A stretch of DNA of 64,000 nucleotides from Escherichia phage FL38. A model generated the notes under the pieces. That model was given only the letters and a program-made list of their open reading frames with translations. It was not told the DNA's origin and searched no databases. Made by a program: the position numbers and the translations under genes. How positions within the stretch are numbered: position 1 is the first letter of the stretch; the number at the start of each line of letters is the position of its first letter. Shown piece by piece: positions 562-61,970 of this stretch. The stretch is from sequence record PP400784, one strand, 5' to 3'.

Positions 562-568
562 TAATCGA

Positions 569-599
569 AAGGCGGGGATAATCCCCGCCTTTTTATTTT
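569..599. terminator. Bidirectional rho-independent terminator between convergent genes
   Basis: GC hairpin GGCGGGG-ataat-CCCCGCC followed by T-run on plus strand; sits between gp54 stop and minus-strand lipoprotein stop. Confidence 0.7.
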
Positions 600-1899: not shown

Positions 1900-1924
1900 T
1901 TTAAACCTCCCATATAACAGAAAA

Positions 1925-1951
1925 CGGGGCTAGTATAAAACTAGTCCCCGT
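1925..1951 (-). terminator. Hairpin/terminator downstream of alt
   Basis: Stem GGGGCTAGT/ACTAGTCCCC with U-rich tract on minus strand. Confidence 0.5.
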
Positions 1952-1977
1952 TTGAGTCAACCATTATTTCTTAAAAA

Positions 1978-4029: not shown

Positions 4030-4062
4030 TTTATATCCTCTAGTTGATAACCTATAAACCTA

Positions 4063-4070
4063 TATTTATG
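4063..4070 (-). promoter_or_regulatory. Possible T4-type late promoter for alt (CATAAATA, 7/8 match to TATAAATA)
   Basis: Minus-strand CATAAATA about 35 nt upstream of alt ATG, just downstream of a terminator hairpin. Confidence 0.3.
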
Positions 4071-4073
4071 AAA

Positions 4074-4097
4074 ACGGGGCTTAACGCCCCCTTTTTA
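4074..4097. terminator. Hairpin terminator upstream of alt
   Basis: GGGGC-ttaac-GCCCC stem-loop flanked by T/A-rich tracts on both strands. Confidence 0.55.
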
Positions 4098-4310
4098 TTA
4101 TAATGCACCATCGAGCAATTGCTCTAAGGTGTATCCTGAATAGTCTTTTTCAATCAGGATATATTTTCCTACTCGTTTAATACAACCGCGCATTTCAACG
4201 TATTCTGCGTAGTTGATGGTACGAGTTGTTCCATCTTCCAGTAATGCAGTACCGATTTCGTTAATGCGGTCATAAGTTACGTCGGTAATGATGATTTCGA
4301 TGTTAGCCAT
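4098..4310 (-). CDS. Hypothetical early protein (70 aa)
   Basis: ORF with SD AGGAG and upstream promoter cassette. Confidence 0.6.
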   Translation of the reverse strand: MANIEIIITDVTYDRINEIGTALLEDGTTRTINYAEYVEMRGCIKRVGKYILIEKDYSGYTLEQLLDGAL

Positions 4311-4346
4311 TTGATACTCCTTAGTAGTTCGTTTCGGTATGGGTGT

Positions 4347-4375
4347 ATTATGCTATACACCCTCTGTTATGTCAA
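4347..4375 (-). promoter_or_regulatory. Early sigma70-type promoter cassette (PeSL-like)
   Basis: Minus strand TTGACA-17 bp-CATAAT, A-tract upstream, conserved leader CCATACCGAAACGA then SD. Confidence 0.7.
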
Positions 4376-4381
4376 CAACTT

Positions 4382-4561
4382 TTAGAACATTTTTGAAATT
4401 AATTTTGCTTTGATTTCGCAGAGAACACCTAAAGATTTCTCGTCACCCGCTTTTGCTGCTTCTGATTGCATTTTTGAAATTGCTTCAATGTCAGTGCAAT
4501 TATAAGCCGCTTGAACTTTAGCGATTGCGATGATTGCCGATTCGATGGTTAAGTGTTTCAT
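4382..4561 (-). CDS. Hypothetical small protein (59 aa), not in ORF track
   Basis: ATG with SD AGGAGAA, flanked by promoter cassettes on both sides; translation MKHLTIESAIIAIAKVQAAYNCTD... Confidence 0.5.
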   Translation of the reverse strand: MKHLTIESAIIAIAKVQAAYNCTDIEAISKMQSEAAKAGDEKSLGVLCEIKAKLISKMF

Positions 4562-4593
4562 GTTTGATTCTCCTTTCGTTTCGGTATGTGTGC

Positions 4594-33660: not shown

Positions 33661-33668
33661 TATAAATA
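33661..33668 (+). promoter_or_regulatory. T4-type late promoter (TATAAATA) for gene 34
   Basis: Exact TATAAATA about 30 nt upstream of gp34 ATG, followed by SD AAGGAG. Confidence 0.8.
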
Positions 33669-33696: not shown

Positions 33697-36600
33697 ATGG
33701 CAGATTTTTCTCAACATTTCAAGGCCACATTTGGCTTTGACGCTGGTAATGAAAAGGTCGTCAATGTAGCATTGGCTGATAAGAATGTCAACACCGATGC
33801 GATCAACGTTGAATTTTTCAATTACCATAATGGTATTACTCAGTATGACACAACTCGCGGTTATGATCAATACGGAACTACAATCTATCAAAACCGTCCG
33901 TATTATGCAAAAGAAGATATCACAAAACCAGCAGGTGATTTTGACCCGACTAAATGGCAAGCACTGCGCACGGACCCACGTTGGGATTATATTGCAGCAA
34001 CTTCCGGTGATACTCCTTTACAGTCTGGTGATTATATCGCAGCAGATGGTCAATTTGCAAACTTGACTTTCTCTATGCCAACTAAGCCAGCAGAGGGAGA
34101 CACTATAACAGTAAAAGATATCGGTGGCAAGTGTGGTGTTAACGAATTATCGTTCTTGAGTACAGGACATGAGTTTTACCATAACGGTAATGTGTATAAC
34201 CGAAAATGGTATTGCACTACCCCGTATGCAATGAACTATTTCATCTTTGTTCGTAATCGTTGGCATGTTTATCAGACAGGAACAGAGCCACGCGGTGTGT
34301 ACGCACAGCCAGCGATTGATGCTATTCAAATGCAGAATGGTGATCAGGTATTTCGTCGTAGTTCGTTGGGTAATATTACCTTAGTGCTTCCTAAGTTTGC
34401 CAACAATGGCGACATGATCCAGACTACAGACCTTGACGGATTAACCGCAACCAACCACGTTACGGTTAAAGTTCATGAGCACGCAGAAGAACAATCAATT
34501 GGCACGTCCGGTCTAAAAGAGATTATCGGTAAGCGTAGCGGTCATGGTGTATTCATCTTTGACAAGACGGAAAACTTATGGCGTTTGTGGGATGGTGATC
34601 AGTCTGTTCGTCTTAAACCGATCATCGATGACACTCGCTTGCAACCTAATAGCTATGTTGCTGTATTTGGTGATCGTGATGTTACTCTGACGCTGCCGAC
34701 CAATATCGAGCCGGGTGATCGTATTCAAGTTTCTATGCAGTATATGAACGGAAACCAGAATTGCCGTATTATCACCGCCACAGAGGATACAAAAATCCTT
34801 ATGCAGAAAAACATGGTTCAGTTTCCTAAGCGTAGCGAGTACCCATTCAATGGGACCGATACATGGACGGGAGTATCTGAATTGTCTTTCAACGCTGCAA
34901 ATGATTATGTACCTTATCTGGAGTTCTCTTATTCAGAAGGTGATGATGGTAAGAAATACTGGTTGGTGGCACATCCTCACCCGATTGTAGAACGAGTAGA
35001 TCCGACTCGTAAAGATCGTGTTGGTGTAATTGCACTGGCTACCCAAACTGAAACGAATAAAAACCATGAAGAGAATCCTAGCGACGAAGTTGCAGTAACA
35101 CCAAAAATGCTGGCTAATAAAACCGCCAACGAAACTCGACGCGGTATTGCTCGCATTGCGACTCAAGCGGAAACGCATCAAGATACTGGTTCCAACTTCC
35201 TGGATGATGTTATCGTTACGCCTAAAAAGTTAAATGACTGTGTTGCTACCGAAGCCCGTCGTGGTGTGATGGAAATTGCAACCCAGCACGAAACCAATGA
35301 AGGTTTAGACGATACCCGCGCTATTACTCCTAAGAAATTAGAAGAACGTCGCGCTTCCGAAGATCTCGCTGGTATTGCTGAAATTGTTCAGGCTGGCGGC
35401 AGTGCTGCCGCTCGACGTGGCGAAGCTGGTACAGGGATCTATAACATCAATGACCATGCTAAAATTGTTACGCCAAAAAACATCAACGAAGTCAAGGCGA
35501 CCGAAACTTCCCGTGGTGTTGGCTATCTGGCAACTGACGCGGAAGTGCAAGGGGCTACAGAATCAACCCCGCAAGATGCTTTACTCATCACGACTCGCAC
35601 GCTAACGAAACGTACTGCTACCGAATCGCGCACTGGTATCGCTGAAATTGCAACTCAGGAAGAAACAAACTTAGGTCAAAGTGATAACCATATCATCACG
35701 CCTAAAAAGTTGCATACTCGCCGCGCAACGGAAACTTTACACGGTTTAGCAGAAATTGCAACTCAGCCGGAGTTTGACGCAGGTCGTGACGATTCTCGCA
35801 TTTCTACCCCATTGAAGATTAAAACCTTCTTTGAGAATGCACAGCGTTTGAAAGTAGATCCGACTCAGGGGCTTAACCTTACTGGTGATTTGTGGCAAGG
35901 TATCATGATCAGCGGTCTGGATGCAACCGAAGACACAAAAGGTGTCGCTAAAGTTGCTACTACTCAGCTTACTGACGCTGGTCAAGATGATACTACAATC
36001 ATCACGCCTAAAAAGCTGCAAGGCAAAAAGGCCACCGAAGGTAAAGAAGGCATTATCCGAGTTGGTACTCAAGCCGAAACCGTGGCTGGTATTATGGACA
36101 ATGTAGCAATTTCTCCGAAGAACTTCAAATATGTTGTTCAGACAGAGGATACATGGAAAGCAACCGAAGCGCGTCGTGGCTTCTTGAAAGTTGCTACTCA
36201 GGAAAACTGTTTTGTTGGTGATAATCTGCAAGGTTCTACTCAAGAACTAGGAAACTACCAGCATGACGGAATTGCTGTTACTCCGAAAGGATTAAACTAC
36301 GCACTTGCTAATTTCTTACCTAAGATGGCAACCGCTCAGAATAGTTTGAAATTGGGTAACGTAGAGGCCGCTAAATGGGCGCGTAGAGACATTGACCAGA
36401 CCATAGAGAGCAATTACACGTTTAATAAAAAAGTTAACGTGAAGGGCGATTTAGAGTGCTTAAAATCAGGTTCCTTTGAAACTCTGTCTGTGACTAAGAA
36501 CTCGACCGATGTTCCGAGTAATGGTCATCTGGTGTTGGGTGAGCGTGGAGTTGACGGTCACACCGGAATTACTCTGCATGGCACAACCGCATCGGAAGGC

Positions 36601-37437
36601 ATGAAAAACTCTTGGTCTATTATCGTTGGTGGTACTGGAACAGCGCAAGTTGTTGATAGTGATGCTATCGCTTTCGGTAAAATCAATGATGGTGGAGTCG
36701 TTGAGCATTACGCCTTTGCTATGAAACACAATGGCGACGCGACAGCATATCGAGACTTTATTGCAGGTCGTAACCTGTATGCGAAACAAGGCGGTTTATA
36801 CATTGTTGACCAGTCTAATCCGGCAATGACTCGTTCCCCAGATGGTATGCTGAATATCGGTCACGGTGGAAGTGTTAACATCAAGGCAGGGCATCAAACG
36901 TTAACTACAGAGATCGCCGGACAGAAGTATCAGATCGTACATGCAGGAAACGCTGACGAAGTTCTTAACCGTCAGTTTGTTAAGAATGCTGGCGATACAA
37001 TGGTCGGTAAGCTGACTATGGATAATGCGCCTATTGTTTCTGTTAAGCATGAAGCTAGCGCGGCAACCGCTCCGGCAATCGGTAACATCGGTTTCTGGAA
37101 TATGCGAGTTACTACCCAGAACATCAAAGAAACTTATCCAGAGAAGAAAAACGGTACTCTGATGCAATGGGGTACTGACGCGGACGGGCTTACCCAGCTT
37201 TGGTCCCCTGATGGTACTCATAAACATTATATCCGTTCCGGTACTGGTGGTCAATGGACCGCATGGGGTGAAATTTACACCAAACAGAACAAGCCTACCG
37301 CTCAGGAAATTGGGGCAGTGGTTGCCGAAGGTGGTTTGATGAACTCTATGACGGTTCGTGATTGGATCAAAGTTGGTAATGTTAAAATCATCGCCAATAA
37401 TCTGACTCGTACCGTAGACTTTATCTGGGAAGACTAA
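33697..37437 (+). CDS. 34: Long tail fibre proximal subunit gp34
   Basis: 1246 aa; TETRRGIARIATQ, ISTPLKIKT, RISTPLK and repeat architecture parallel T4 gp34. Confidence 0.93.
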   Translation: MADFSQHFKATFGFDAGNEKVVNVALADKNVNTDAINVEFFNYHNGITQYDTTRGYDQYGTTIYQNRPYYAKEDITKPAGDFDPTKWQALRTDPRWDYIAATSGDTPLQSGDYIAADGQFANLTFSMPTKPAEGDTITVKDIGGKCGVNELSFLSTGHEFYHNGNVYNRKWYCTTPYAMNYFIFVRNRWHVYQTGTEPRGVYAQPAIDAIQMQNGDQVFRRSSLGNITLVLPKFANNGDMIQTTDLDGLTATNHVTVKVHEHAEEQSIGTSGLKEIIGKRSGHGVFIFDKTENLWRLWDGDQSVRLKPIIDDTRLQPNSYVAVFGDRDVTLTLPTNIEPGDRIQVSMQYMNGNQNCRIITATEDTKILMQKNMVQFPKRSEYPFNGTDTWTGVSELSFNAANDYVPYLEFSYSEGDDGKKYWLVAHPHPIVERVDPTRKDRVGVIALATQTETNKNHEENPSDEVAVTPKMLANKTANETRRGIARIATQAETHQDTGSNFLDDVIVTPKKLNDCVATEARRGVMEIATQHETNEGLDDTRAITPKKLEERRASEDLAGIAEIVQAGGSAAARRGEAGTGIYNINDHAKIVTPKNINEVKATETSRGVGYLATDAEVQGATESTPQDALLITTRTLTKRTATESRTGIAEIATQEETNLGQSDNHIITPKKLHTRRATETLHGLAEIATQPEFDAGRDDSRISTPLKIKTFFENAQRLKVDPTQGLNLTGDLWQGIMISGLDATEDTKGVAKVATTQLTDAGQDDTTIITPKKLQGKKATEGKEGIIRVGTQAETVAGIMDNVAISPKNFKYVVQTEDTWKATEARRGFLKVATQENCFVGDNLQGSTQELGNYQHDGIAVTPKGLNYALANFLPKMATAQNSLKLGNVEAAKWARRDIDQTIESNYTFNKKVNVKGDLECLKSGSFETLSVTKNSTDVPSNGHLVLGERGVDGHTGITLHGTTASEGMKNSWSIIVGGTGTAQVVDSDAIAFGKINDGGVVEHYAFAMKHNGDATAYRDFIAGRNLYAKQGGLYIVDQSNPAMTRSPDGMLNIGHGGSVNIKAGHQTLTTEIAGQKYQIVHAGNADEVLNRQFVKNAGDTMVGKLTMDNAPIVSVKHEASAATAPAIGNIGFWNMRVTTQNIKETYPEKKNGTLMQWGTDADGLTQLWSPDGTHKHYIRSGTGGQWTAWGEIYTKQNKPTAQEIGAVVAEGGLMNSMTVRDWIKVGNVKIIANNLTRTVDFIWED

Positions 37438-37470: not shown

Positions 37471-38610
37471 ATGACACAAGATATAGAATTACGCAATACT
37501 GGAATTAGGTTTGCGCATTTCGACGAAGACTCTGCGACATTTACCAGCATTTCAGAAAATAACTCTGTGATGTATAAGCTGGAAGTGCGCGGATCTAATG
37601 CGGATTCTACCAAACCAGCAAGGATTAGATTTAATGGAGTGGAGATCGTTGGCACTGGCTATGAAAATGGCCTAAATTTTAAAGTTCTTACTCCAACTGG
37701 ACAACTACACGAAGAAAAGGTATTCTATGGTCGCGGTGCTGTTTTGGCAATGCGTGATTATCTTTCTTTGCTGAAAGGTGACTATATCATTGCGATGGCA
37801 ACGCATGGAGAATTGTTTGCAGATCCGATCAGTGATGGTGTATTCTCTAAGCTGGGATCTGTATCATTCCCGAATCACATTTTGCTACAGCAAATGCCTC
37901 GTGTATCCTATGCAGCAATTTATTCTACTAAAATGGGTAAAATTGTGTGCGAAGGGATGCAAGCAACTCACGGGGAAGGACAAGATTCATCTATACAAAT
38001 TGAGAAAGTCTATGATACTATAGATGATCTTGCTATAACAGGAACACCACAACGATTTTTAGATTATCCGGTTGAGTATGTTAGCGAAGATTCCGAACAT
38101 TTCGAGCTAATACAATGGCCTCGTGATGAGACCAGCGCCCCACTTGAGGATTTTAACATAAAGGCAGGTGACAAACTATCAATATCCTTTGAATTGTTCC
38201 GTGATAGTGCCGCAGCCGCAGCCAACGTAACAGCGCGTTTCTATCACAACTACTTCACCGATGGACAATATCAAACTGGTGTTCGATACAATGCCAGCAA
38301 AAAAGACCAATGGGAAAAGTTTGAAGCCGTCTATACCGTACCGGAAGGAGTTGATAGTGTAGTAACTGGTTGTATCAGATATCCAACCAACTCCAATGAA
38401 GGTATTGTTAAAATTAGAAACATACTAATAACGCCGATCAGTGGAGTCGTCAAAACTACTGGTCCTACTTCATTTGGTGTTAATGGTGTTAGAACAACTC
38501 ATATTCAGGATAACGGTGATTTTACTAACCCTGTAATGAGTCTTCTTAAACTACCCAGAGATAATAAACACATCACATCCAACAACTTTAAAGAGTTCGA
38601 TGTTGATTAA
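37471..38610 (+). CDS. 35: Long tail fibre hinge connector gp35
   Basis: 379 aa (T4 372 aa); position between 34 and 36. Confidence 0.8.
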   Translation: MTQDIELRNTGIRFAHFDEDSATFTSISENNSVMYKLEVRGSNADSTKPARIRFNGVEIVGTGYENGLNFKVLTPTGQLHEEKVFYGRGAVLAMRDYLSLLKGDYIIAMATHGELFADPISDGVFSKLGSVSFPNHILLQQMPRVSYAAIYSTKMGKIVCEGMQATHGEGQDSSIQIEKVYDTIDDLAITGTPQRFLDYPVEYVSEDSEHFELIQWPRDETSAPLEDFNIKAGDKLSISFELFRDSAAAAANVTARFYHNYFTDGQYQTGVRYNASKKDQWEKFEAVYTVPEGVDSVVTGCIRYPTNSNEGIVKIRNILITPISGVVKTTGPTSFGVNGVRTTHIQDNGDFTNPVMSLLKLPRDNKHITSNNFKEFDVD

Positions 38611-38773: not shown

Positions 38774-38781
38774 TATAAATA
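38774..38781 (+). promoter_or_regulatory. T4-type late promoter (TATAAATA) for gene 36
   Basis: Exact TATAAATA about 35 nt upstream of gp36 ATG. Confidence 0.8.
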
Positions 38782-38815: not shown

Positions 38816-40306
38816 ATGGCAGATTTGAAATATGGATCTACTGTAGGTGGATCTCCCATTTGGACGCAAGGAAACTTGACGATCCAGCCAGCGGGGGATC
38901 AGCTTTTCTACAAAGGTCATAAAATCTATACCGCTTTTGATAGACCTTCGGCTACCGATTTTGATGCTGTTAGTGCATCCGAAGGTGGCACATTTCAAAA
39001 GCAAGTTCATTTCGAGGAAGGTTTAAGCGTAGGTAGCGCATCGGCTGGAGAAACCAAAAAGAATGGTATCTTTAAAGGTCAGAGCGACGCTGCTAATTTT
39101 GACGGCGTAAGCTGGGGTTTGCATTCATGGAAGTCAATCGGCTTTGTTAATGCCCGTGATGGCGTTATTATGGCGTATATTGACACCACAACGGGCGAAT
39201 TTAAGTCTAAAGGGACTATCGAAGGGACAACCATTAAAGACACAGGTCAACGCGTCTATAGCCCTGTTAATAAACCAACGAATAATGATTTAGATTTGGT
39301 GTCTCGTCGCGGTGATACCCTCACAGGAACATATAATTTAAACACTGTCACTGTTAAACTATCGGTTGATTCGAAATTAATTGCAAGGGAACGTGATTTA
39401 ATTAATTTTGATGCGACTAAGATCTATTATGGTAACGTTCTTGACACGTTGGTCTTCCGAAGTAAAGATGAGCCTACCATTTTTGTTAATGACAGAGAAG
39501 GTCGTTTTTATCACACCAACAATAAACCAACTAAAGCCGATGTTGGACTAGGCAATGTCACCAATGATGCACAGGTTAAACGTGCTGGTGATATTATGGA
39601 AGGTAACTTGCAAGCGCCTAGAATGTTGGCGACAAACGATCCTGCTGGTCCTAATGAATTGGTTCGTTTGAGCTACTTTGAGAGAAAATCAATGGTAGCA
39701 AATCCAACCATCATTGGAAACGTTGATTGGAACACTCTTATTAATCGCGGTATCTATCGTGTGGAAAATGCTGGATCAGGTACTAATAAACCGTCTGATA
39801 GCTATTATAACGGCGTTTTGATGGTATATCGCCCAGAAGATGCTGTTGGTACTCGTCGAATTGTTCAGGTGTATTATCCTGAATCTATTGACCATCCGAT
39901 GTGCTGGCGTTCGTGTTCTAATGAATCATGGACTGCATGGAACTATGTAGATCACCGTAAATTGGCTGATATTCTCTATGTTAACGTCACTGGCGATACC
40001 ATGACAGGACCGTTAACTGTTCCGGCTGCAAACGGTGTTAGAACAGCTAAAACTAACTATAACGGGGATAACTGTTATGCGGCGTTAAGCGGTGCTGATG
40101 GTACTGCTATGATTCACCGCATTAGTGATATTAAAGGGACCGAAAAGCTGGGGATCACCCACGACTCAAAGGTCGTGTTTTTCCGTTCTCGAAACAATAC
40201 TCAAACCGTGGACCGCTATCAGCTTTATCATGAAGGTAATAAACCTACTCCGGCTGATGTTGGAGCGGTTCCACTTAATGCGGTGATTGATTTTGGTACT
40301 TTCTAA
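38816..40306 (+). CDS. 36: Long tail fibre distal connector gp36 (extended, 496 aa)
   Basis: N-terminus MADLKYGSTVGGSPIWTQGN parallels T4 gp36 MADLKVGSTTGGSVIWHQGN. Confidence 0.8.
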   Translation: MADLKYGSTVGGSPIWTQGNLTIQPAGDQLFYKGHKIYTAFDRPSATDFDAVSASEGGTFQKQVHFEEGLSVGSASAGETKKNGIFKGQSDAANFDGVSWGLHSWKSIGFVNARDGVIMAYIDTTTGEFKSKGTIEGTTIKDTGQRVYSPVNKPTNNDLDLVSRRGDTLTGTYNLNTVTVKLSVDSKLIARERDLINFDATKIYYGNVLDTLVFRSKDEPTIFVNDREGRFYHTNNKPTKADVGLGNVTNDAQVKRAGDIMEGNLQAPRMLATNDPAGPNELVRLSYFERKSMVANPTIIGNVDWNTLINRGIYRVENAGSGTNKPSDSYYNGVLMVYRPEDAVGTRRIVQVYYPESIDHPMCWRSCSNESWTAWNYVDHRKLADILYVNVTGDTMTGPLTVPAANGVRTAKTNYNGDNCYAALSGADGTAMIHRISDIKGTEKLGITHDSKVVFFRSRNNTQTVDRYQLYHEGNKPTPADVGAVPLNAVIDFGTF

Positions 40307-40310
40307 TTTT

Positions 40311-40336
40311 AGCGGGGATTATCTCCCCGCTTTTCT
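40311..40336 (+). terminator. Hairpin/terminator after gene 36
   Basis: GCGGGGA-ttatc-TCCCCGC followed by TTTTCT. Confidence 0.6.
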
Positions 40337-40376
40337 AAATAATATTATTCTAATAACCGTTTAAGGATTTTATAAA

Positions 40377-43166
40377 ATGGCAGATTTAAGCAGAATCCAA
40401 TTTAAACGCACTAGCACTAAAGGTCGTAAACCTGATGCTAGTACGATGAATCCGGGGGAATTGGCAATCAACCTTGCGGATCAATATCTTCTTACTAAAA
40501 ATGATTCCGGTGCTATTATCAATTTAAGTTGTCCTCCTGTTTATGACCGCGATGTTACAATGGCGGGTAAGGTTAAAGGTAATAATTATATCTTAAGTAA
40601 AACCGCTAACTATCTGGAAGATCAGACCGCACGAGATCTTAATTACTTTGGTGCTTTCCGAACTAATGGACAAGATGGTCTTTTAGATCTAACTCTTAAT
40701 GTTCCTCATTCTGCTGGCATTAATCATGGTCGAGGATTTACTTTCCGTTATGCGACTGGCGGATCTCGTGTTGAAACCTATGGGTATAATGCACAGGGAC
40801 AAAAAGCATTTAGCTATAAAATGTATCACGAAGGTGATAAACCAACTCCAGGAGAATTGAACGTCTATAGCAAACAAGAAATTGACCGGATGTTTGTTAA
40901 GAACGTTAAAATGGTTGTTCCTTCTGGTGGTACAAACCGTGGTTATTTTAAAATTGCATCCGCAATGATCCCGCAGAGTGGTCGGATGGCGTTTCTGCGA
41001 ATCTATGGTGGTAATGGATATAATGTAAACTCATATGACCAAGTTGATTTTCTTGAAATTGTTATTCGTAGTGGTAATAATAACCCTAAAGGCGTTAGTA
41101 TTGCTGCATATCGTCGAAATTCTTTGAACGTCCATGAAGTATTTGCAATTAATACTTCCGGTGATAGCTATGACATTTATGTTAACTATGGTCGTTACAC
41201 TGATAACGTTATTGTAGAGTTTGGAAAAACTGTTGACGTCGCATTGACTGTTCATGATGTTCCTGAATTTTCGGCGACTAAACCAGAAACCGGAACTAAA
41301 TTTGATGCTCGTGTTATTACGATGTTCAACACCGAAAACAAAGCCGGAACATTGATGTTTGATAATAACAATCAGTTAACCTATGATATTGTTAGCCTTA
41401 GCAATGGTCCTGATGATGTTAGAAATTATCTGCGTAAATTCCGAAGTAAAGCGGGTGAAATGATTTGGCATGAAACCGTTCAGGGTGCTGTATATCGTCT
41501 TGCTACTGGAACTACTGATTCTACGGAAGTTCTTAGAGTTGATTCTAACAGTGCTCTCCCGGGTAGCTATAAAGGATATGTAATTACTGGTAAAATGGAA
41601 TTGCACGGTAGCGGTAGTGCGATGAATTTACACCGCCAGACTGGTCAAGCTGCATATATGGCGTGGTGGGATCGTCGTGATGGTAAAAACCAACGTAGTG
41701 GTTATATCGGCCATGCGGATGGTACTACTGATGGTTTTGTGTGGCGTAATGATGTTGGTGCGAACTCATTTGATTTGGAAAGTAGTGGACAAGTAAATTT
41801 GACTACAGGAAAAACAAAAATTGTATATACCAACGGACAATATTATTCCGCTAACTCTGATGCATTCCGTATGATTTACGGCAATTATGGCGCATTCTGG
41901 CGTAATGACGGCACTAAAGTTTATCTTCTTTCTACTGCCGAAAATGATCGTTTTGGTGGATGGAACGGCAACCGACCATTCATTTACGATTTGACTTCCG
42001 GTAACGTTCAATTAGGCGGTGACGGTAACGAAGCTGCATTAACGTTAGAACGTGCAAGCAAAGCCGCTCGTTTTACGGGTGATGTTTATGTAGAAAAAGG
42101 TTTCCTTCATTTCTCTAGTGGACGATTAGGATCTCGTGATTTCTTTAAAATCAACCATTGGGGTGATAGCAATAACGGTCGTGATAACATTTTGCAGTTT
42201 GAAGACAATAGCGGTGCACACTTCACAACTGAACGTAAAATGGCAACCGGTGAAATTACTGCGCGATTTAAAGGATTTGTGCGTGTAGAATCTGGCGAAA
42301 TTACATTCCATGCTAACCGTGGTTCTTCTTCGCAATTTAGTCTCAATACATGGGGTAATGAATCACGAAAACAAGTTTTTGAATGTAAGGATGCAACAAG
42401 TTATCATTGGTATACCGAACGTACTGCGGGTGGAACTGGTCCGGTTAAGTTCTCTGTTGCAGGTTCTTTCTATAGCGGAAGCGATGCTAACGTAGGCGGT
42501 AGTCTGAATTTTGGTAATGCTATTCAACGCGGCGCTAGCGTCATTACTATAGATTCTGGTTCTGCGGGTGCTGGTTCTTTTGCATCTCAACATGATGATA
42601 ACGTCAAAGCACCTATTTTCCAACGTTTAGACCGTGGTGATGCGTCTACATATGTTCCTTTGATCAAGCAACGTTATGTTCAAGGTGCAGTAACATTCTC
42701 GTTGGGTATGCTTCTTAATGAAGGTTCATGGCGAGTTCATGTTAAAGGTTCTGGTGTTGAATCTAATACTACCTTCTATAAAAACGGCGATTTCCAAGCT
42801 GGACGCAATGGTAACTTTAACGACGTTTACATTCGCTCTGATGCTCGCCTTAAAATCAACAAGGAAGAGTATAAGGAGAATGCCACTGATAAAGTTAATC
42901 GCTTGACGGTATACACCTATGACAAGGTTAAATCTTTAACCGACCGTACTGTCATTGCTCATGAAGTTGGTATTATTGCTCAGGATCTTGAAAAAGAATT
43001 ACCGGAAGCAGTAACAACTTCTAACATCGGCGATCCCGATAAGCCAGAAGAGATCTTAACAATTTCTAACTCTGCTGTCAACGCTCTTTTAATTAAGGCG
43101 TTTCAGGAAATGAGCGAAGAATTGAATGCCGTTAAAGCTGAACTAGCGGAACTTAAAAAGAATTAA
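40377..43166 (+). CDS. 37: Long tail fibre distal subunit gp37 with C-terminal intramolecular chaperone-like domain
   Basis: N-terminus MADLSRIQFKRTSTKGRKPDAS, AGAGSFASQ, YVPLIKQRYVQGA parallel T4 gp37; C-terminus SDARLKINKEEY ... AHEVGIIAQDLEKELPEAV resembles S74-type autocleaving chaperone. Confidence 0.88.
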   Translation: MADLSRIQFKRTSTKGRKPDASTMNPGELAINLADQYLLTKNDSGAIINLSCPPVYDRDVTMAGKVKGNNYILSKTANYLEDQTARDLNYFGAFRTNGQDGLLDLTLNVPHSAGINHGRGFTFRYATGGSRVETYGYNAQGQKAFSYKMYHEGDKPTPGELNVYSKQEIDRMFVKNVKMVVPSGGTNRGYFKIASAMIPQSGRMAFLRIYGGNGYNVNSYDQVDFLEIVIRSGNNNPKGVSIAAYRRNSLNVHEVFAINTSGDSYDIYVNYGRYTDNVIVEFGKTVDVALTVHDVPEFSATKPETGTKFDARVITMFNTENKAGTLMFDNNNQLTYDIVSLSNGPDDVRNYLRKFRSKAGEMIWHETVQGAVYRLATGTTDSTEVLRVDSNSALPGSYKGYVITGKMELHGSGSAMNLHRQTGQAAYMAWWDRRDGKNQRSGYIGHADGTTDGFVWRNDVGANSFDLESSGQVNLTTGKTKIVYTNGQYYSANSDAFRMIYGNYGAFWRNDGTKVYLLSTAENDRFGGWNGNRPFIYDLTSGNVQLGGDGNEAALTLERASKAARFTGDVYVEKGFLHFSSGRLGSRDFFKINHWGDSNNGRDNILQFEDNSGAHFTTERKMATGEITARFKGFVRVESGEITFHANRGSSSQFSLNTWGNESRKQVFECKDATSYHWYTERTAGGTGPVKFSVAGSFYSGSDANVGGSLNFGNAIQRGASVITIDSGSAGAGSFASQHDDNVKAPIFQRLDRGDASTYVPLIKQRYVQGAVTFSLGMLLNEGSWRVHVKGSGVESNTTFYKNGDFQAGRNGNFNDVYIRSDARLKINKEEYKENATDKVNRLTVYTYDKVKSLTDRTVIAHEVGIIAQDLEKELPEAVTTSNIGDPDKPEEILTISNSAVNALLIKAFQEMSEELNAVKAELAELKKN

Positions 43167-43206
43167 GGAAACTCCCAGGGAAGGGAACTACTAAGGAGAA
43201 ACGGCT

Positions 43207-43446
43207 ATGGTCTATAATATCGTCATTGGTGCTTTGTCTAATTTCGGAATGAAATTATTGTCAAAGTTAATTAGTGAAAAGATGCTCACTAAAATTTTCT
43301 TCTATTGCGCTCGTCGTCTTGCGGATTATACCAATACGCCAATTGATGATCGTTTTGTGGAAGAACTTTATAAGGAGTTTAATAAAGATCAGTCAGAAGA
43401 TAGTAACGAGCAAGATAAACCTAGTGATAGTCAACTACCTAAATAA
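43207..43446 (+). CDS. Small protein with N-terminal hydrophobic segment and acidic tail (79 aa)
   Basis: Occupies the gene-38 position but is not gp38-like; SD AAGGAG. Confidence 0.5.
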   Translation: MVYNIVIGALSNFGMKLLSKLISEKMLTKIFFYCARRLADYTNTPIDDRFVEELYKEFNKDQSEDSNEQDKPSDSQLPK

Positions 43447-43479
43447 GAGTACACTGTCATAGTTATCTTAGGGCATTAT

Positions 43480-44136
43480 ATGCAAGTTTCTGAAAAAGGG
43501 AAAGACTTTGCTATCTCAAATGTCCTGCGCGCTATTTTCACAACTAAAAGCACGGAGTTGCTCGTACTTCGTGTTTTTGCTGCCGTCGTGTTGTCCATAT
43601 TAGCATTTGTCGTTTATAGTAAAAACGAGTTATTTGCGCTTTATAAAGAGACTCGTTATGAGACTTATGCTCACATTCTCCAGGTAGAGAAAGACCGCAA
43701 TTTTGATAATGCAGCACAGGAGCAGTTACAGATAGTTCATGTGTCGGCTGATGCCGATTTTTCTGCTGTTTTTAGTTTTCGTCCGAAAAACCTAAACTAT
43801 TTTGTTGATTTGGTGGCATATGAAGGAAAGCTACCGCATACAATCGATGAAAAAAATTTAGGTGGATTCCCTATCAATAAAACGAGTGAAGAATATCGTA
43901 GGCATCTTTTAGGTAAATCCTATTTTACCGATAAAGATTTCCAGTATATTCCATCAAGAGAAAAGAAATTAGAGAATATCGATATAGGTTTCATGTATTC
44001 TTGTCCTATATTCAATCTCGATAATGTCTATTCTGGTAGTATCGCCATTTCATGGAAGAATAAACCGGATATTGACATTGAGAATTTAGATACTCTTTGC
44101 AATCAATCTGCCAGAATCCTCGGAAGGATTAGATAA
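43480..44136 (+). CDS. t: Holin T
   Basis: 218 aa; QLQIVHVSADADFSAVFSFRPKNLNYFVDLVAYEGKLP and YSCPIFNLDNVYSG closely parallel T4 holin. Confidence 0.93.
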   Translation: MQVSEKGKDFAISNVLRAIFTTKSTELLVLRVFAAVVLSILAFVVYSKNELFALYKETRYETYAHILQVEKDRNFDNAAQEQLQIVHVSADADFSAVFSFRPKNLNYFVDLVAYEGKLPHTIDEKNLGGFPINKTSEEYRRHLLGKSYFTDKDFQYIPSREKKLENIDIGFMYSCPIFNLDNVYSGSIAISWKNKPDIDIENLDTLCNQSARILGRIR

Positions 44137-44140
44137 CTTA

Positions 44141-44172
44141 AAGGGGAAGCCTTTCGGCCTCCCCTTCTTTTT
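44141..44172. terminator. Bidirectional terminator between t and convergent minus-strand genes
   Basis: GGGGAAGCC-tttc-GGCCTCCCC hairpin followed by TTCTTTTTATT. Confidence 0.7.
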
Positions 44173-44419
44173 ATTGGCGCATAGACGCGCCTGAATCGCA
44201 TTTTGACGCTGTATGATGAAAACAGGTAGCGTACCAGTCATCGGCTTGTTTGTCTTCGTCAGAAAACGCGTAATTGCGTTGTATGCCGTTTTCTACTTTG
44301 ACCAGTGCAATAGCTGTTTCTGGAAGATCAATCAATCGGACAAAATCGCCATCTTCCCATTCTACACGAGCAATATCATAACCCATCTCAAAATAAACAA
44401 TCACTTGCTCTAATCTCAT
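44171..44419 (-). CDS. Hypothetical protein (82 aa)
   Basis: ORF in the region where T4 carries asiA/arn/motA; no similarity recognised. Confidence 0.45.
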   Translation of the reverse strand: MRLEQVIVYFEMGYDIARVEWEDGDFVRLIDLPETAIALVKVENGIQRNYAFSDEDKQADDWYATCFHHTASKCDSGASMRQ

Positions 44420-44763
44420 TCTGGAAACTTCCCGTAAACATTCTCTGCCAACTTACGTGCATCGCTAATAATATCTTTCATGTGATGGTCGTATTGCTTT
44501 GCCATAATAAGAATACAATCAATGAAGAATGAATAACGTCTAGAATTTACTAAAAAGTTTTTACCTAGTGAATCAAACGGATCTGGATCATCAAGTTCGA
44601 TAGATTCTCTAACTTTAGACAATTCTTTCATTACAAGGTTTACATCGTTTATAATATCTTTTGATTTATATGCGCCTTTCTTTAACAATATGGCGGTCAA
44701 TTCTGACGCAGTTTCTTGAAATTCTTTCTGATAAGCTGAGTTTACATCATCGATATTAAACAT
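44416..44763 (-). CDS. Hypothetical protein (115 aa), tandem paralog
   Basis: N-terminus MFNIDDVNSAYQKEF resembles neighbour MFNFDQYESWKATEL. Confidence 0.5.
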   Translation of the reverse strand: MFNIDDVNSAYQKEFQETASELTAILLKKGAYKSKDIINDVNLVMKELSKVRESIELDDPDPFDSLGKNFLVNSRRYSFFIDCILIMAKQYDHHMKDIISDARKLAENVYGKFPE

Positions 44764-45117: not shown

Positions 45118-45450
45118 TTACAGATGAAAACCTGTTACGATCACCGCATCGATCATACCGCTAGGAATAAACGGTTCGCCCTCTTTTATTTCAACTTTGA
45201 ATTGATGCCATTTCGCTAATACTTCTTCCGGTACACCCAGCGATTTGGCGTCTGCTTTAGTTTCATCCATAATCCAACTAGGCTGCATGAGAGCATAGTT
45301 TACATAGTCCATTTCTGGGGTCATGTCATCAATGTTAATATATTTGCAGTTGACGCGTTTCAGAATTTCAAATTCTTTATTGTCAACCTGTACCATGTAT
45401 AATTCAGTAGTTTCTGGAATCAGTTCCCACACAACCAGTACATTTTTCAT
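45118..45450 (-). CDS. Hypothetical protein (110 aa)
   Basis: ORF in early small-gene block. Confidence 0.45.
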   Translation of the reverse strand: MKNVLVVWELIPETTELYMVQVDNKEFEILKRVNCKYINIDDMTPEMDYVNYALMQPSWIMDETKADAKSLGVPEEVLAKWHQFKVEIKEGEPFIPSGMIDAVIVTGFHL

Positions 45451-45458
45451 AGTTCACC

Positions 45459-45827
45459 TCACTTAACAAAGATTTTCTTTAATGCTTTCAGGATCGTTGC
45501 TTCCGGTGCTTCTTCCGGTGGAGGAAGCAATTCTACCACTTCCTCTTCCAACTCGATATAGTCTACCAGATATTCTACATAGAATGCAAGTGCTTCCATG
45601 AAATTAGATGCTACATCCGATTCACCACAAGCGCCTACATGCATTGTATAAACATCACTGCGATCAAGTTTGTGGATGCTTCCCAGATAGTTTCGGTTAT
45701 ACCAGACTTCCCACACTTTCAGCTTTCCGGTTTTGGTTGCTGTTTTATAATCGGTTTCGTAATGATGCAATTGACGTTGCAGATCATTGATAATAACACA
45801 TTTTTCGTAATTGTTTTGAATTTCCAT
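45459..45827 (-). CDS. Hypothetical protein (122 aa)
   Basis: ORF in early small-gene block. Confidence 0.45.
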   Translation of the reverse strand: MEIQNNYEKCVIINDLQRQLHHYETDYKTATKTGKLKVWEVWYNRNYLGSIHKLDRSDVYTMHVGACGESDVASNFMEALAFYVEYLVDYIELEEEVVELLPPPEEAPEATILKALKKIFVK

Positions 45828-45837
45828 GATGTAATCC

Positions 45838-46029
45838 TCACTTATCGTTAAGAAGTTCTAAAACTTTCTGTCGTACTTTGTCAATATTAGTTGATTCAAA
45901 AACTGTACGGTATCCCCAGCTTTGACCGTATGAGCGCGAGCAATCCCCATATCCCCATTGTTCAACCTGATAGTATTCAAGGAATGGGTGCTGCCGAACT
46001 ATGATACCATCGCGATTAAAAATTACCAT
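45838..46029 (-). CDS. Hypothetical protein (63 aa)
   Basis: ORF in early small-gene block. Confidence 0.4.
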   Translation of the reverse strand: MVIFNRDGIIVRQHPFLEYYQVEQWGYGDCSRSYGQSWGYRTVFESTNIDKVRQKVLELLNDK

Positions 46030-46052
46030 AATATAATCCTCACGTCAAAAAC

Positions 46053-46340
46053 TTATTTTCGGTTGTGGTCACGATATGTTTTAAAATATCCCTCGTACCA
46101 CGGTAAAATATCTGGATTTTTACCACTATACAGACATTTAACCATCATGTCAATAAGGCCATCTGGTGTTTGATAGTTTCCAGCTTTTATAAGCTCTTTG
46201 ATTAAAATCTCTCTGTATATGTCTTTCGGATCTTCGTAATCAACTTGTATTGTGGTTGTGGTCTCATTCAATTTGGTTTCTGGAGTATCTCGCATTGCAT
46301 CCCACCAATCTTTTGTGACCTTCATGTTATTGAATTGCAT
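46053..46340 (-). CDS. Hypothetical protein (95 aa)
   Basis: ORF in early small-gene block. Confidence 0.45.
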   Translation of the reverse strand: MQFNNMKVTKDWWDAMRDTPETKLNETTTTIQVDYEDPKDIYREILIKELIKAGNYQTPDGLIDMMVKCLYSGKNPDILPWYEGYFKTYRDHNRK

Positions 46341-46351
46341 AATTTAACCTC

Positions 46352-47110
46352 TTACTTGCAAACGTATTGATCTACATCAATTGCGCCACCGAATGTAGGG
46401 TGACGTTTTTCAAATCGAATAGTTCCGTCGTTTGGTTCGAAAACGGAGTATTCATATAGATCTTTCTTGCCAACATTCTTATAAAACCCGCCTTTAGTCA
46501 TAACGGTTTCTTGTACGTTTGCTTTGTGTACGTTGTATTCGTCAATGTATACAAAATCAACCATCTTCCCATTTTTAATGGTTACTTTAAGATCTCCTGG
46601 CTGGTTTCCATATTTTGCATACAGTGGAGCTTCTTTAATTTTGGTGGAAATTCCATCTTTAATACTCCACTCATAACGAACGGTGCATTGATAGGTAAAA
46701 GTTTCGACCTTCGGTTCTTCCACCATTTTTTCTTCCTGTTTCGGTTGTTCTTCTTCAACCTTCGCAGAAGTCTCTGAATCGCTTTCTGACGCGGTTTCTT
46801 CTTTAGGTAATACATTCATCAAGTTTTGGATTTGAGCGTTGTATACAGCCTCCAGTGGCTGAATCTGCCCGATATTGATCATTGTATCACGAACAGTTTT
46901 ATTCCAGTTGAGTTGCTCTTGTTTAAGAGACGGATCAATCTTAACAGCCTTAACATATACTTCATGAAGTTTCGAATCCAGTGCGGAGATTGACTCATTA
47001 GCACAAATAAACTTCTCTGATTTGGTAGTGGCTTTAGCGCAATCAAAGGACGCAGCATTAGCACCGAAAGCAGTAGCGGAAAGAACGATAGCAGCGATAA
47101 TGTTTTTCAT
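46352..47110 (-). CDS. Secreted protein with LprI-like (DUF1311-type) N-terminal domain (252 aa)
   Basis: Signal peptide MKNIIAAIVLSATAFGANA; then C...E.IC...L..LD..L..Y pattern; acidic linker; C-terminal beta-rich domain. Confidence 0.5.
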   Translation of the reverse strand: MKNIIAAIVLSATAFGANAASFDCAKATTKSEKFICANESISALDSKLHEVYVKAVKIDPSLKQEQLNWNKTVRDTMINIGQIQPLEAVYNAQIQNLMNVLPKEETASESDSETSAKVEEEQPKQEEKMVEEPKVETFTYQCTVRYEWSIKDGISTKIKEAPLYAKYGNQPGDLKVTIKNGKMVDFVYIDEYNVHKANVQETVMTKGGFYKNVGKKDLYEYSVFEPNDGTIRFEKRHPTFGGAIDVDQYVCK

Positions 47111-59509: not shown

Positions 59510-60901
59510 TCAAATATAGTCTACTCGATACCTCGCACGGGTAACACCCACATATAATAACTGCATTGCCAATTCAAAGTCAACATTGTCTGTACACATG
59601 CAAGGAGTATACAGGAACACGCGGTCTACGCTGATCCCTTGTGACTTATGAATGGTGCAAGCTGGTAATGCTTTTACATTCAAGAACATACGCTTCATCG
59701 TCCAGAAGGAATCCCAATCTGGTTTAAATTTTGGATTCTCTTTCTTCATTTCGCGATATTGTCCGGCGACCGTATTCAGATAGATAGAGAAAATGTTCTT
59801 CTGACGTTGTTCTGTCAGAATGTTGATTTCTACTAAATCTGGTTTATCTGTAGTGATTCCGACTGCATCTAAACCGACTTTCTGATTTAGGATTTCTTTG
59901 TCTTCGTCATCATCGACGCTTTCCACTTTCAGAGTATATCCTAAAACTGGTTGCGGATCTACCCCCGTGCAACGTAATGTAAATTCACGCGGGATGACCT
60001 CTTTAACTCGGATCATCTCACCATTGTTAAAAATAACATTGGGAATCTTCTTCCCGCGTTCATCTCGCAGATATTCGATCAATGGTTCCTGAGTAACCAG
60101 AATTTCATCTACAATCACTGGTTCATCGGTGTTATAAACGCGCTTACGTACAATTTCATTGAGTTTTTCGACGCTCTTGTTAGTGTAGGCCAGAATACGG
60201 TTTTCTAGAAGGTCTTCCGGCGTTTTAACGGTTTCGAAATAATGCTTCATAAACTCCGGCAGAGTTGAGCTATGGAATACACCCTCGTTACCGCACTGCT
60301 TTTCGAATACCCATTTACCATTACGGACAGCGGTCGCCACATCAATTATTGGAGCATTAGATCGTTTAATCTCTGTAAGTTCTACATTCTGAAACCTTTC
60401 ATCGGTGAAGAAAGGAGAGATCGACGTTGCACCGCTCGGATCAACTGGTCGTAACTGGTTCAGATCACCCACGGCAATAATAACAATTCGACCGTTGATA
60501 CTCTTCATGAGAATATCAAATAGTTTCTTATCGACCATACTCGCTTCATCAACAATGATGATCTGAACATCATCTAGCTTAGGAGTATCTTTTTGCTCAA
60601 ATACTTGAGTATCTTCATAGTTGGTCGGGTTTAGTCGCAGTAGTGCATGTAAAGTAAATGCTTGACGACCTACCGCTTTACTCAAAACTTTTTTAGCCTG
60701 GTGGGTAGGCGTTGCCAAAACCACACCAGTTACCCCACGACGGACCATTTCCTGAACAATGAATTTCATCATTGCGGTTTTACCAGTACCCGCCGCACCA
60801 CGGACAGTTGTATGCTTCTTTTGTTCAATACGTTTCATTAGAACATCAAAAGCATGTTTTTGCCCGTCTGTTAACATATCGAAAGTTAATACTCTGCTCA
60901 T
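59510..60901 (-). CDS. dda: Dda DNA helicase (SF1B)
   Basis: 463 aa; Walker A GAAGTGKT, LATPTHQAKK, IIVDEASM, HKSQGISVDRVF, YVGVTRAR parallel T4 Dda. Confidence 0.93.
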   Translation of the reverse strand: MSRVLTFDMLTDGQKHAFDVLMKRIEQKKHTTVRGAAGTGKTAMMKFIVQEMVRRGVTGVVLATPTHQAKKVLSKAVGRQAFTLHALLRLNPTNYEDTQVFEQKDTPKLDDVQIIIVDEASMVDKKLFDILMKSINGRIVIIAVGDLNQLRPVDPSGATSISPFFTDERFQNVELTEIKRSNAPIIDVATAVRNGKWVFEKQCGNEGVFHSSTLPEFMKHYFETVKTPEDLLENRILAYTNKSVEKLNEIVRKRVYNTDEPVIVDEILVTQEPLIEYLRDERGKKIPNVIFNNGEMIRVKEVIPREFTLRCTGVDPQPVLGYTLKVESVDDDEDKEILNQKVGLDAVGITTDKPDLVEINILTEQRQKNIFSIYLNTVAGQYREMKKENPKFKPDWDSFWTMKRMFLNVKALPACTIHKSQGISVDRVFLYTPCMCTDNVDFELAMQLLYVGVTRARYRVDYI

Positions 60902-61215
60902 TATCCTAAAATCCTCACCTTGCGAACACAGATAGTATTGAGTTCTCGCCGTACCCGTTCTTTTTCATATTCAGGAATTTTATATTCGATACCATCCCGA
61001 ACAATTTCAGAAGACCGGATTATGCCAAATTTTCGTTTAGGTACAACCTTGTATTTCGGTTCACCCGCCAATAGACTCTCACAATAATCTATCTGATCAC
61101 ACATTGACGCTAACGCAGCATCATGTGTTTCGCAAGTTAGGACGCGACCCTTCGCGTCCACTGAGTATTGAAAGAATCCGTCTTTATCACGATAACATAC
61201 AGCAAATACATGCAT
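60901..61215 (-). CDS. Hypothetical protein (104 aa)
   Basis: ORF with ATGA overlap to dda start. Confidence 0.45.
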   Translation of the reverse strand: MHVFAVCYRDKDGFFQYSVDAKGRVLTCETHDAALASMCDQIDYCESLLAGEPKYKVVPKRKFGIIRSSEIVRDGIEYKIPEYEKERVRRELNTICVRKVRILG

Positions 61216-61970
61216 TATAAACCTACCTTCGCTTTCATCAATTCAATCCACGACGCATCAATCGGAAGCCCGTATTTCACGCGTTCTTTTTGTGCTGGCG
61301 TTAAGTTCTCATACTTAGAAAGAGATTCAATCAAAACGCTGGTATATTTTAGCACGATTTCGGTATTGTTTGCAATAGCCTTAAGTTTTTCTTCTTTCTT
61401 GTTGATTTCGCTAAGTGCTTGCTTGAGATCTGCAATTTTCTGATAACGTTCTTCCATACGGAAGAGAGTATTTTTAATCGCTCGCTCGGCTGCCTCTGCT
61501 TTCTCCGGTTCGTTGTGCTTTTTATGGCGCTCGATTGCTAATTTCTTTTCTTCGATTGCCATTTCCTGATTTTTGATGCGATTCTCGTTAAGTTCGATCC
61601 ACTCGATGTACTTCGCACGTAGGGCAATTTCATCATCAGAAAGTTTACCGTTAGTTCCTAGTTCCTGGATCTCTTTAAGAGATTCGATAGTGTGATTGCC
61701 ACGGAAAGAATTGTATTTCAGTTTAACCGGAATTACATTGCCATCAACATATCCCAGATTGCAATCAATGCGCTCTAAGGAGAGTCCGTCATCACCTTCA
61801 CCGAAAGCCTCACCTGAATAGGCACAATGAGTCTGACGGTAAATGTTACGAACAGTGACTAAGCTCATAGAGAAGTCTTTGTTGCGACGTGAAGCACCAG
61901 CCATGATAGAGTTCAGCCGGAAAACAACCAGCGCCAATTCTTCGTTAGATTTAAAAGCAAACAGTTTCAT
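61215..61970 (-). CDS. Hypothetical protein with possible degenerate HNH-like N-terminus and coiled-coil C-terminus (251 aa)
   Basis: CAYSGEAF ... RIDCNLGYVDGNVIPV then K/E-rich heptad-like region. Confidence 0.4.
   Translation of the reverse strand: MKLFAFKSNEELALVVFRLNSIMAGASRRNKDFSMSLVTVRNIYRQTHCAYSGEAFGEGDDGLSLERIDCNLGYVDGNVIPVKLKYNSFRGNHTIESLKEIQELGTNGKLSDDEIALRAKYIEWIELNENRIKNQEMAIEEKKLAIERHKKHNEPEKAEAAERAIKNTLFRMEERYQKIADLKQALSEINKKEEKLKAIANNTEIVLKYTSVLIESLSKYENLTPAQKERVKYGLPIDASWIELMKAKVGL

Follow-up and report, generated by a model that had tools for sequence, protein, structure and literature searches.

Distal tail-fibre end of Escherichia phage FL38: an S74-bearing gp37 followed by a small gene of the PM2 P18 family

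Introduction

In phage T2, gene 38 is located directly between genes 37 and t, whereas Escherichia phage FL38 (PP400784) carries an unrelated gene for a 79-aa protein at this position. The question is whether the FL38 fibre tip dispenses with the gp38 adhesin. A previous sequence-only reading had suggested that gene 38 is replaced, that the fibre tip folds by self-chaperoning of gp37 and that receptor specificity resides in gp37 itself. We followed up this suggestion in a stretch of 64,000 nucleotides, hereafter referred to as the window. It belongs to a Krischvirus, an RB49-like T4-type coliphage, with kaaroe as the closest relative (95%).

The locus is very probably an ordinary RB49-like (Krischvirus) distal fibre end, comprising an S74-bearing gp37, a distant gp38 and a P18-type small gene. 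These three points have already been published. Desplats 2002 is reportedly a prior publication on the RB49 fibre locus, and Krupovic 2007 is likewise said to be among the prior publications on these points. The fibre layout of RB49-like phages with a displaced gene 38 is described in two publications (Trojet 2011, PMC3157838; Efimov 2022, PMC9569957). The relevance of the locus lies in annotation and host-range prediction for RB49-like phages.

Gene order and transcription

All features described here are encoded on the plus strand. A gp36-like distal tail fibre connector of 496 aa (38816..40306) matches phrog_16472 over its full length (E=0) and Pfam Phage_T4_gp36 weakly; the gene is also present in RB49 and kaaroe. 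It is followed by gene 37 (40377..43166, 929 aa), the 79-aa ORF (43207..43446) and the gene of holin t (43480..44136, 218 aa; Pfam Phage_holin_T, E=4.5e-61). RB49 and other Krischvirus members show the same order of 34, 35, 36, 37, small ORF and t and the same S74 domain on gp37.

A T4-type late promoter motif, TATAAATA, was found at 38774..38781 upstream of gene 36. On the plus strand of the tail-fibre region this motif matches only twice, at 33661 (before gene 34) and at 38774. Since its count across the whole window is not above chance, the assignment of a promoter at 38774 is based on the position before late genes. A scan of 40000-44600 for promoters and terminators yielded counts at chance level, and no terminator-like site was found there between gene 37, the 79-aa ORF and t. 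A late transcript covering 36, 37, the 79-aa ORF and t likely starts at the 38774 motif.

The C-terminal domain of gp37

The part of gp37 predicted to remain in the mature fibre, residues 1-820 (40377..42836), was identified as the distal subunit of the long tail fibre (phrog_1699, E=6.6e-153; Pfam Gp34_trimer at residues 426-537). With 929 aa, the protein is intermediate in length between its counterparts in kaaroe (920 aa) and RB49 (979 aa). The approximately 40 residues preceding the conserved tip AGRNG.FNDVYIR are the same as in kaaroe and differ from RB49, which is ordinary fibre mosaicism.

The last 109 residues (821-929; 42837..43166 including the stop codon) constitute the C-terminal intramolecular chaperone. 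Residues 821-880 match Pfam Peptidase_S74 (PF13884) with E=1.4e-11 and 45 bits, well above the Pfam cut-off of 22 bits. This HMM search had been proposed as a check of the earlier assignment of the last approximately 110 residues to the S74 type, which is hereby confirmed. The domain start had been placed at 42820, 17 nt before the position of the SDARLK motif (42837) found here.

Further support was obtained from solved structures, three of which were matched by a profile of the gp37 C-terminal region: the S16 gp37 tip construct (6f45_A, E=1.7e-9), the autoprocessing domain of MYRF (7dc3_A, E=2.3e-5) and a tail fibre (8jov_1). The C-terminal stretch SAVNALLIKAFQEMSEELNAVKAELAELKKN is heptad-like and putatively helical, and it can be aligned to the helical part of the S16 and MYRF domains.

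The scissile-type Ser821 is encoded at 42837-42839 and Lys826, at +5, at 42852-42854. Sequence comparison showed the serine and lysine of SDARLK to be invariant in RB49 and T2. Their spacing matches that of the catalytic residues Ser1264 and Lys1269 of T5 pb1, as judged from the sequences. The chaperones of T5 pb1 and the K1F endosialidase belong to the same Pfam family and likewise possess a serine with a lysine at +5 and a subsequent coiled-coil helix (PMC4690869). In T2 gp37, the chaperone domain is the same and the cleavage junction, VYIR followed by SD.RLK, is identical to that of FL38.

The presence of an S74-type intramolecular chaperone makes self-chaperoned folding and C-terminal processing of gp37 likely, in line with the folding route suggested earlier. 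In the proposed model, the gp37 trimer would fold with the aid of its own C-terminal domain. After correct trimerisation, Lys826 would activate Ser821 to cleave the bond that joins Arg820 to Ser821, and the chaperone of 109 aa would be released. Autocleavage of FL38 gp37 is thus predicted from homology, and the position of the S74 motif suggests that the mature protein ends in ...NGNFNDVYIR.

Probable location of gene 38

A gp38 adhesin of the T2/T6/S16 type is defined by a Gp38_N attachment region and a glycine-rich GP38 receptor-binding domain and has a length of about 260 aa. A tblastn search of the 64-kb window with RB49 gp38 gave a chance match only (E=4.3). Ten mid-sized ORFs of the window (189-315 aa) were considered as candidates and rejected, as none gave a corresponding Pfam match; they include an Alt-like ADP-ribosyltransferase, gp59, RNase H and DHFR, among others.

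The closest relatives encode a full gp38 at a distant locus (PMC3157838; PMC9569957). In RB49, the gene is RB49p079 (258 aa, RB49 45367-46143). The neighbourhood of kaaroe_95 (261 aa) corresponds to that of RB49p079, with rI and tk on one side and dam, nrdC and gene 49 on the other. Both proteins match Pfam Gp38_N and GP38 with E values of about 1e-70. RB49 gp38 is covered to at least 80% in 93 phage records; the matches listed include many Krischvirus members and some other T4-like phages. Another RB49 protein considered as the displaced gp38, RB49p143 (279 aa, encoded between genes 8 and 9), turned out to be a methyltransferase.

Read against the RB49 gene order, the FL38 window ends inside gene 61. 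By the map of RB49, the locus of gene 38 would be located about 35 kb past the end of the window and about 55 kb from the fibre locus, and hence beyond the view of the earlier reading. Given its presence in RB49 and kaaroe, we infer that FL38 carries gene 38 in its own genome. The gene is hence probably displaced to a distant locus, as in other RB49-like phages, and not replaced as previously suggested.

A fibre without gp38, in which the mature tip of the self-chaperoned gp37 binds the receptor as in T5 pb1, would fit the S74 domain and the lack of a gp38 gene beside gene 37 or elsewhere in the window, and T5 pb1 demonstrates that S74-chaperoned fibres can bind receptors directly (PMC4690869). 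We nevertheless regard this reading as highly improbable. Apart from the displaced gp38 of the closest relatives, FL38 gp37 shares its last 150 aa at 100% identity with kaaroe, a phage that does possess gp38. The S74 domain does not argue against a gp38 adhesin, because T2 and S16 have both. The N-terminal attachment region of kaaroe gp38 is 64% identical to that of T2. Host-range mutants of RB49 map to gp38 (E230K, Y231S; PMC9569957), which speaks against the earlier placement of receptor specificity in gp37.

In the favoured RB49-like arrangement, the gp37 tip exposed after cleavage would be capped by a separate adhesin of the T2/S16 type, and this gp38, encoded about 55 kb away outside the window, would carry the receptor specificity. 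In this respect FL38 is expected to differ from T5, whose mature fibre tip is itself receptor-binding. For RB49-like phages, an S74 domain on gp37 combined with the absence of an adjacent gene 38 does not imply that the receptor-binding site is in gp37. As the adhesin gene lies elsewhere in the genome, the receptor-binding protein will be misassigned by tools that consider only the fibre locus.

Identity of the 79-aa ORF

The small ORF after gene 37 was found where it had been noted before and is preceded by a Shine-Dalgarno sequence, AAGGAG (43193-43198), located 8 nt before its ATG. It is the same gene as RB49p252 (96% identical); the RB49 annotation 'Dc5' (RB49p253) denotes the same reading frame with an alternative start that makes it shorter. 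The protein is kept at 95-99% identity across 51 phage records. As stated previously, it is not gp38-like: no match to GP38 or Gp38_N was obtained in Pfam (E<=0.1) and glycine-rich motifs are absent.

Instead, the protein matches phrog_402 (E=1.1e-19) and is linked to Phage_PM2_Gpl (PF26925). It showed no match in NCBIfam or in the Pfam copy scanned, from which the PF26925 model is probably absent. Its assignment is based on the precomputed annotation of close homologues and on one hhalign result. That annotation gives PF26925 for each of the 15 close homologues (59-96% identity) and for 75 members of the family, and hhalign against PM2 gp l gave a probability of 90.6% (E=1.3e-6, 43 columns). 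In a family alignment of 32 sequences F31, T44, D47 and D48 are invariant and F13, E24, F32, A35 and T42 are conserved in at least 90%. The protein also fits the core F..KL...E...FF..A....T.T..DD of Phage_PM2_Gpl proteins (about 60 aa). Judged from these comparisons, the 79-aa ORF is a member of Phage_PM2_Gpl, the family of the PM2 lysis factor P18.

Like the 79-aa protein, PM2 P18 (gp l) is small and helical, and its gene is located at the end of the late operon adjoining a holin-type gene. However, PM2 gp l is shorter (51 aa), the acidic tail of 20 residues found in the FL38 protein being absent, and the motif T-x-T-P-x-D-D reads S-E-N-T-L-D-N in PM2. The gp l gene follows the holin-like gene k, whereas the 79-aa ORF precedes t.

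The N-terminus had been described as hydrophobic, which holds to a moderate degree: the Kyte-Doolittle mean over 19 residues peaks at 1.31, short of the 1.6 commonly required for a transmembrane helix, and does not permit a confident call of such a helix. The structure prediction proposed earlier as a check returned an AlphaFold model with three helices, albeit at low confidence (pLDDT 65).

Gene neighbourhoods and putative role in lysis

Homologues of P18 occur in RB49 and Felix O1 (PMC1950889), and in PM2 the protein is needed for disruption of the outer membrane (PMC9502842; PMC6356626). A holin or lysozyme gene adjoins the family gene in the FL38 window and in PM2; of nine further contexts inspected, six show such a neighbour. 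The order in Ounavirinae is fibre, Gpl and putative holin. Lysozyme is followed by Gpl in a Vibrio phage, a Shewanella genome and the metagenomic contig L016. In the metagenomic phage L018, an S74-bearing fibre is followed by gp38, a Gp38_N protein and Gpl, so that the Gpl gene co-occurs with gp38 genes rather than substituting for them. In the remaining three contexts (Salmonella phage 7-11, Cronobacter phage A24 and Aeromonas phage LAh_6) Gpl is found among capsid and tail genes, without a lysis gene among its annotated neighbours; the link to lysis is therefore not universal.

The position among structural genes in these three phages and behind a tail-fibre gene in Krischvirus and Ounavirinae would also suit a tail-fibre accessory, acting as a chaperone in assembly or belonging to the virion as a small component, in place of a lysis protein. 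Chaperone or adhesin roles were considered by Trojet et al. for small ORFs following gene 37 in other T4-like phages (PMC3157838). Such a function appears quite unlikely for the 79-aa protein, since in the Vibrio phage, the Shewanella genome and L016 the gene is preceded by lysozyme and has no annotated fibre neighbour, and the family is named for the lysis factor of a tailless phage, PM2. The co-occurrence with gp38-type genes in L018 and the gp57A-type fibre chaperone encoded by RB49 itself point in the same direction.

A holin or antiholin-like regulator acting with T at the inner membrane, as opposed to an outer-membrane factor, is an unlikely alternative. It would agree with the holin gene that follows directly in two phage groups unrelated to each other, with the occurrence as the sole small ORF directly after the endolysin in the Vibrio phage and with a small, helical protein whose N-terminal helix is moderately hydrophobic and whose C-terminus is charged. 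This hydrophobicity is under the usual transmembrane threshold in FL38, however, the holin-like role in PM2 belongs to P17 (gp k) and not to P18 (PMC6356626; PMC9502842), and RB49 has an rI antiholin homologue elsewhere.

Based on gene neighbourhood and family membership, a role of the 79-aa protein in lysis is the preferred reading. As a homologue of the PM2 lysis factor P18 (gp l), it would have no place in the fibre. Late transcription of its gene along with the neighbouring holin gene t is probable, and the protein may act in lysis, possibly at the cell envelope. The role of the P18-like protein has been shown in PM2 only. RB49 has annotated Rz-like spanins (pseT.2 and pseT.3), and thus an additional outer-membrane disruptor is not obviously needed.

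Tentatively, a P18-like gene may, with a downstream holin gene, constitute a small mobile module for lysis that was repeatedly inserted at the ends of tail-fibre operons, a possibility to which we attach limited confidence. If so, the P18-like protein may disrupt the envelope independently of spanins or modulate the holin, and may remain relevant in phages already encoding spanins.

The holin next to the P18-like gene is T in Krischvirus, and an unrelated putative holin of 114-124 aa occupies this place in Ounavirinae and in the metagenomic phage L017/L018.

Phage identity and gene order

In a megablast search, the stretch 40377-44136 matched 84 phage records, most of them named as Escherichia or Shigella phages; the matched records that were checked are members of the genus Krischvirus. 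Escherichia phage kaaroe matched best, with 95.3% identity; the identity to RB49 is 91%. The locus comprises gp34 (33697-37437), gp35 (37471-38610), gp36 (38816-40306), gp37 (40377-43166, 929 aa), a 79-aa ORF (43207-43446) and holin t (43480-44136), an order shared with the long tail fibre locus of RB49. By comparison with the RB49 map, the window starts at the end of gene 54 and stops within gene 61.

Two of the upstream fibre proteins have features of their own. With 496 aa, gp36 is more than twice as long as the approximately 220 aa given for this protein by Trojet et al. 2011 (PMC3157838). Over the first 40-80 residues it matches several PHROG families of gp37 type at their N-termini, a sequence likeness which suggests that joint modules are shared between gp36 and gp37-type fibres. 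Residues 66-133 of gp35 showed a sub-threshold Pfam match to ILEI (interleukin-like EMT inducer; E=6e-4, 20.7 bits, cut-off 27), which probably reflects a common beta-rich fold or chance.

C-terminal chaperone of gp37

The resemblance of the last c. 110 residues of gp37 to S74-type chaperone domains, noticed in the sequence-only reading, was confirmed by HMM search: residues 821-880 match Pfam Peptidase_S74 with E=1.4e-11 and 45 bits, above the curated cut-off of 22. The domain opens at residue 821 (nt 42837) with the motif SDARLK, and the C-terminal module is 109 residues long with a helical stretch at its end. The serine of this motif and the lysine five residues on are the counterparts of Ser1264 (scissile) and Lys1269 (activating) in pb1, the L-shaped fibre of T5 (PMC4690869). 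Both the domain and its motifs are shown for this gp37. The junction VYIR/SD.RLK is invariant across the gp37 proteins of FL38, RB49 and T2.

Among solved structures, a profile of the C-terminal region matched 6f45_A, a construct of the gp37 tip of phage S16 (E=1.7e-9), 7dc3_A, the autoprocessing domain from myelin regulatory factor (E=2.3e-5), and the tail fibre 8jov_1. The last 150 residues matched 1462 phage records by tblastn, including T4-like distal fibres, T5-like L-shaped fibres and streptococcal PblB proteins; a module found in so many and such varied fibres is very common.

Location of gene 38

Replacement of gene 38, with receptor specificity residing in gp37 itself, had been proposed from the presence of this domain and the small ORF. 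This is not supported, since both the literature (Trojet et al. 2011; Efimov et al., PMC9569957) and the relatives place the gp38 adhesin at another locus. The presence of an S74 domain on gp37 does not speak against such an adhesin, because T2 and S16 have both; in T2, gene 38 lies directly 3' of gene 37. In RB49, gp38 is encoded by RB49p079 (45367-46143, minus strand; 258 aa, glycine-rich), and in kaaroe by kaaroe_95 (60853-61638). The two genes lie in matching surroundings, flanked by rI and tk to one side and by dam, nrdC and gene 49 to the opposite side, and both match Pfam Gp38_N and GP38 (E ~1e-70). At a coverage of at least 80%, RB49 gp38 matched 93 records by tblastn, and those listed include many Krischvirus and some other T4-like phages. 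Host-range mutants of RB49 carry the gp38 substitutions E230K and Y231S, and OmpA or certain O antigens have been reported as its receptors (Efimov et al., PMC9569957).

Within the 64-kb window, tblastn with RB49 gp38 gave a chance match alone (E=4.3). As the window ends inside gene 61, the gene 38 locus is expected approximately 35 kb past its end. The last 150 residues of gp37 are 100% identical between FL38 and kaaroe, and the gp38 attachment regions of kaaroe and T2 are 64% identical. Judged from these sequences, FL38 very likely has a kaaroe-like gp38 partner.

The length of gp37 varies from 920 aa in kaaroe and 929 aa in FL38 to 979 aa in RB49 (compared with the sequence L001, 6001-8940). 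The c. 40 residues ahead of the conserved tip AGRNG.FNDVYIR are identical in FL38 and kaaroe, but wholly different in RB49, a case of mosaic exchange immediately upstream of the tip at which gp38 docks.

Identity of the small ORF

The 79-aa ORF is preceded by a strong Shine-Dalgarno sequence 8 nt upstream and is kept in 51 records at 95-99% identity; on present evidence it is a real gene. The family alignment favours this start over the shorter one that RB49 also carries as the annotation 'Dc5', since the first helix is aligned throughout the family. The AlphaFold model (pLDDT 65) consists of three helices (2-20, 24-41 and 45-65) and a disordered acidic tail. The N-terminus, previously described as hydrophobic, is moderately so and no more, its highest Kyte-Doolittle mean over 19 residues being 1.31. 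That the protein is not gp38-like was rightly recognised, as the Pfam scan found no GP38 signature.

The protein matches phrog_402, a family of unknown function. The local Pfam-A scan (E<=0.1) gave no match, the PF26925 model being apparently absent from that copy. A homology search gave 15 close relatives, with identities of 59-96%, and each of them has a precomputed assignment to PF26925 (PF26925.1). When a profile built from diverse family members was used as query, 75 proteins were found, each of them unnamed and assigned to PF26925. The family is named Phage_PM2_Gpl according to a gene-context look-up. In PM2, gp l has 51 aa and is encoded at the end of the late operon, directly after gp k; it matched the family profile with 90.6% probability over 43 columns. 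Of these two PM2 proteins, gp k is the holin-like factor P17 and gp l is P18, which is needed for outer membrane disruption (PMC9502842; PMC6356626). The identity of the small ORF as a P18 homologue is already published, in a paper that names RB49 and Felix O1 as phages with P18 homologues (PMC1950889).

The neighbourhoods of Gpl genes mostly favour a link to lysis. In Ounavirinae (mistaenkt, Moogle) a tail fibre gene is followed by Gpl and a putative holin gene; Gpl lies directly 3' of a GH108 lysozyme gene in Vibrio phage 1.090.B and of a Phage_lysozyme gene in a Shewanella baltica genome, and it follows a 1112-aa lysozyme-domain protein on a 59-kb metagenomic contig. Exceptions are Salmonella phage 7-11, Cronobacter phage A24 and Aeromonas phage LAh_6, where Gpl is located among capsid and tail genes. 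On the metagenomic contigs L017 and L018, a gp37-like fibre gene with S74 is followed by one or more gp38-family genes, Gpl and a 114-aa protein. The arrangement in L018 shows that Gpl accompanies gp38 and does not replace it.

In the phage behind both contigs (each 1-4566; Logan SRR5149862 and SRR34828512), the genes for thymidylate synthase and DHFR are positioned as in Felix O1-like phages. The fibre has 1355 aa with Gp34_trimer and Peptidase_S74. A full Gp38_N+GP38 gene (255 aa) stands 3' of it in L018, but not in L017; a 160-aa Gp38_N-only gene, the P18-like gene and the 114-aa ORF are present in both.

Transcription and proposed mechanism

On the plus strand of the tail-fibre region, the T4-type late promoter motif TATAAATA has two matches only, one ahead of gene 34 (33661) and one ahead of gene 36 (38774). 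No terminator-like site was detected in a scan of the intervals separating gene 37, the small ORF and t. It is plausible that genes 36, 37 and t are transcribed together with the small ORF.

By homology, gp37 would trimerise on its own C-terminal chaperone, after which Ser821 would cleave the Arg820-Ser821 bond and the chaperone would depart. Relatives and published genetics suggest that a gp38 adhesin from a distant gene then caps the gp37 tip and binds the receptor. The small ORF may act in lysis with or beside holin T, as its family membership and neighbourhood would suggest. Besides its P18-like protein, RB49 encodes spanins (pseT.2 and pseT.3). As each of the three elements has been published before, the locus is an ordinary one that was rightly observed but over-interpreted.

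Approximately 2.2 kb downstream of holin t, a 252-aa ORF on the minus strand (46352-47110) is the same gene as RB49p262, which is annotated as hypothetical. It showed a borderline Pfam match to the lysozyme inhibitor LprI domain (E=1.4e-4, 22.6 bits, cut-off 22) and could be a periplasmic lysozyme-inhibitor-like protein.
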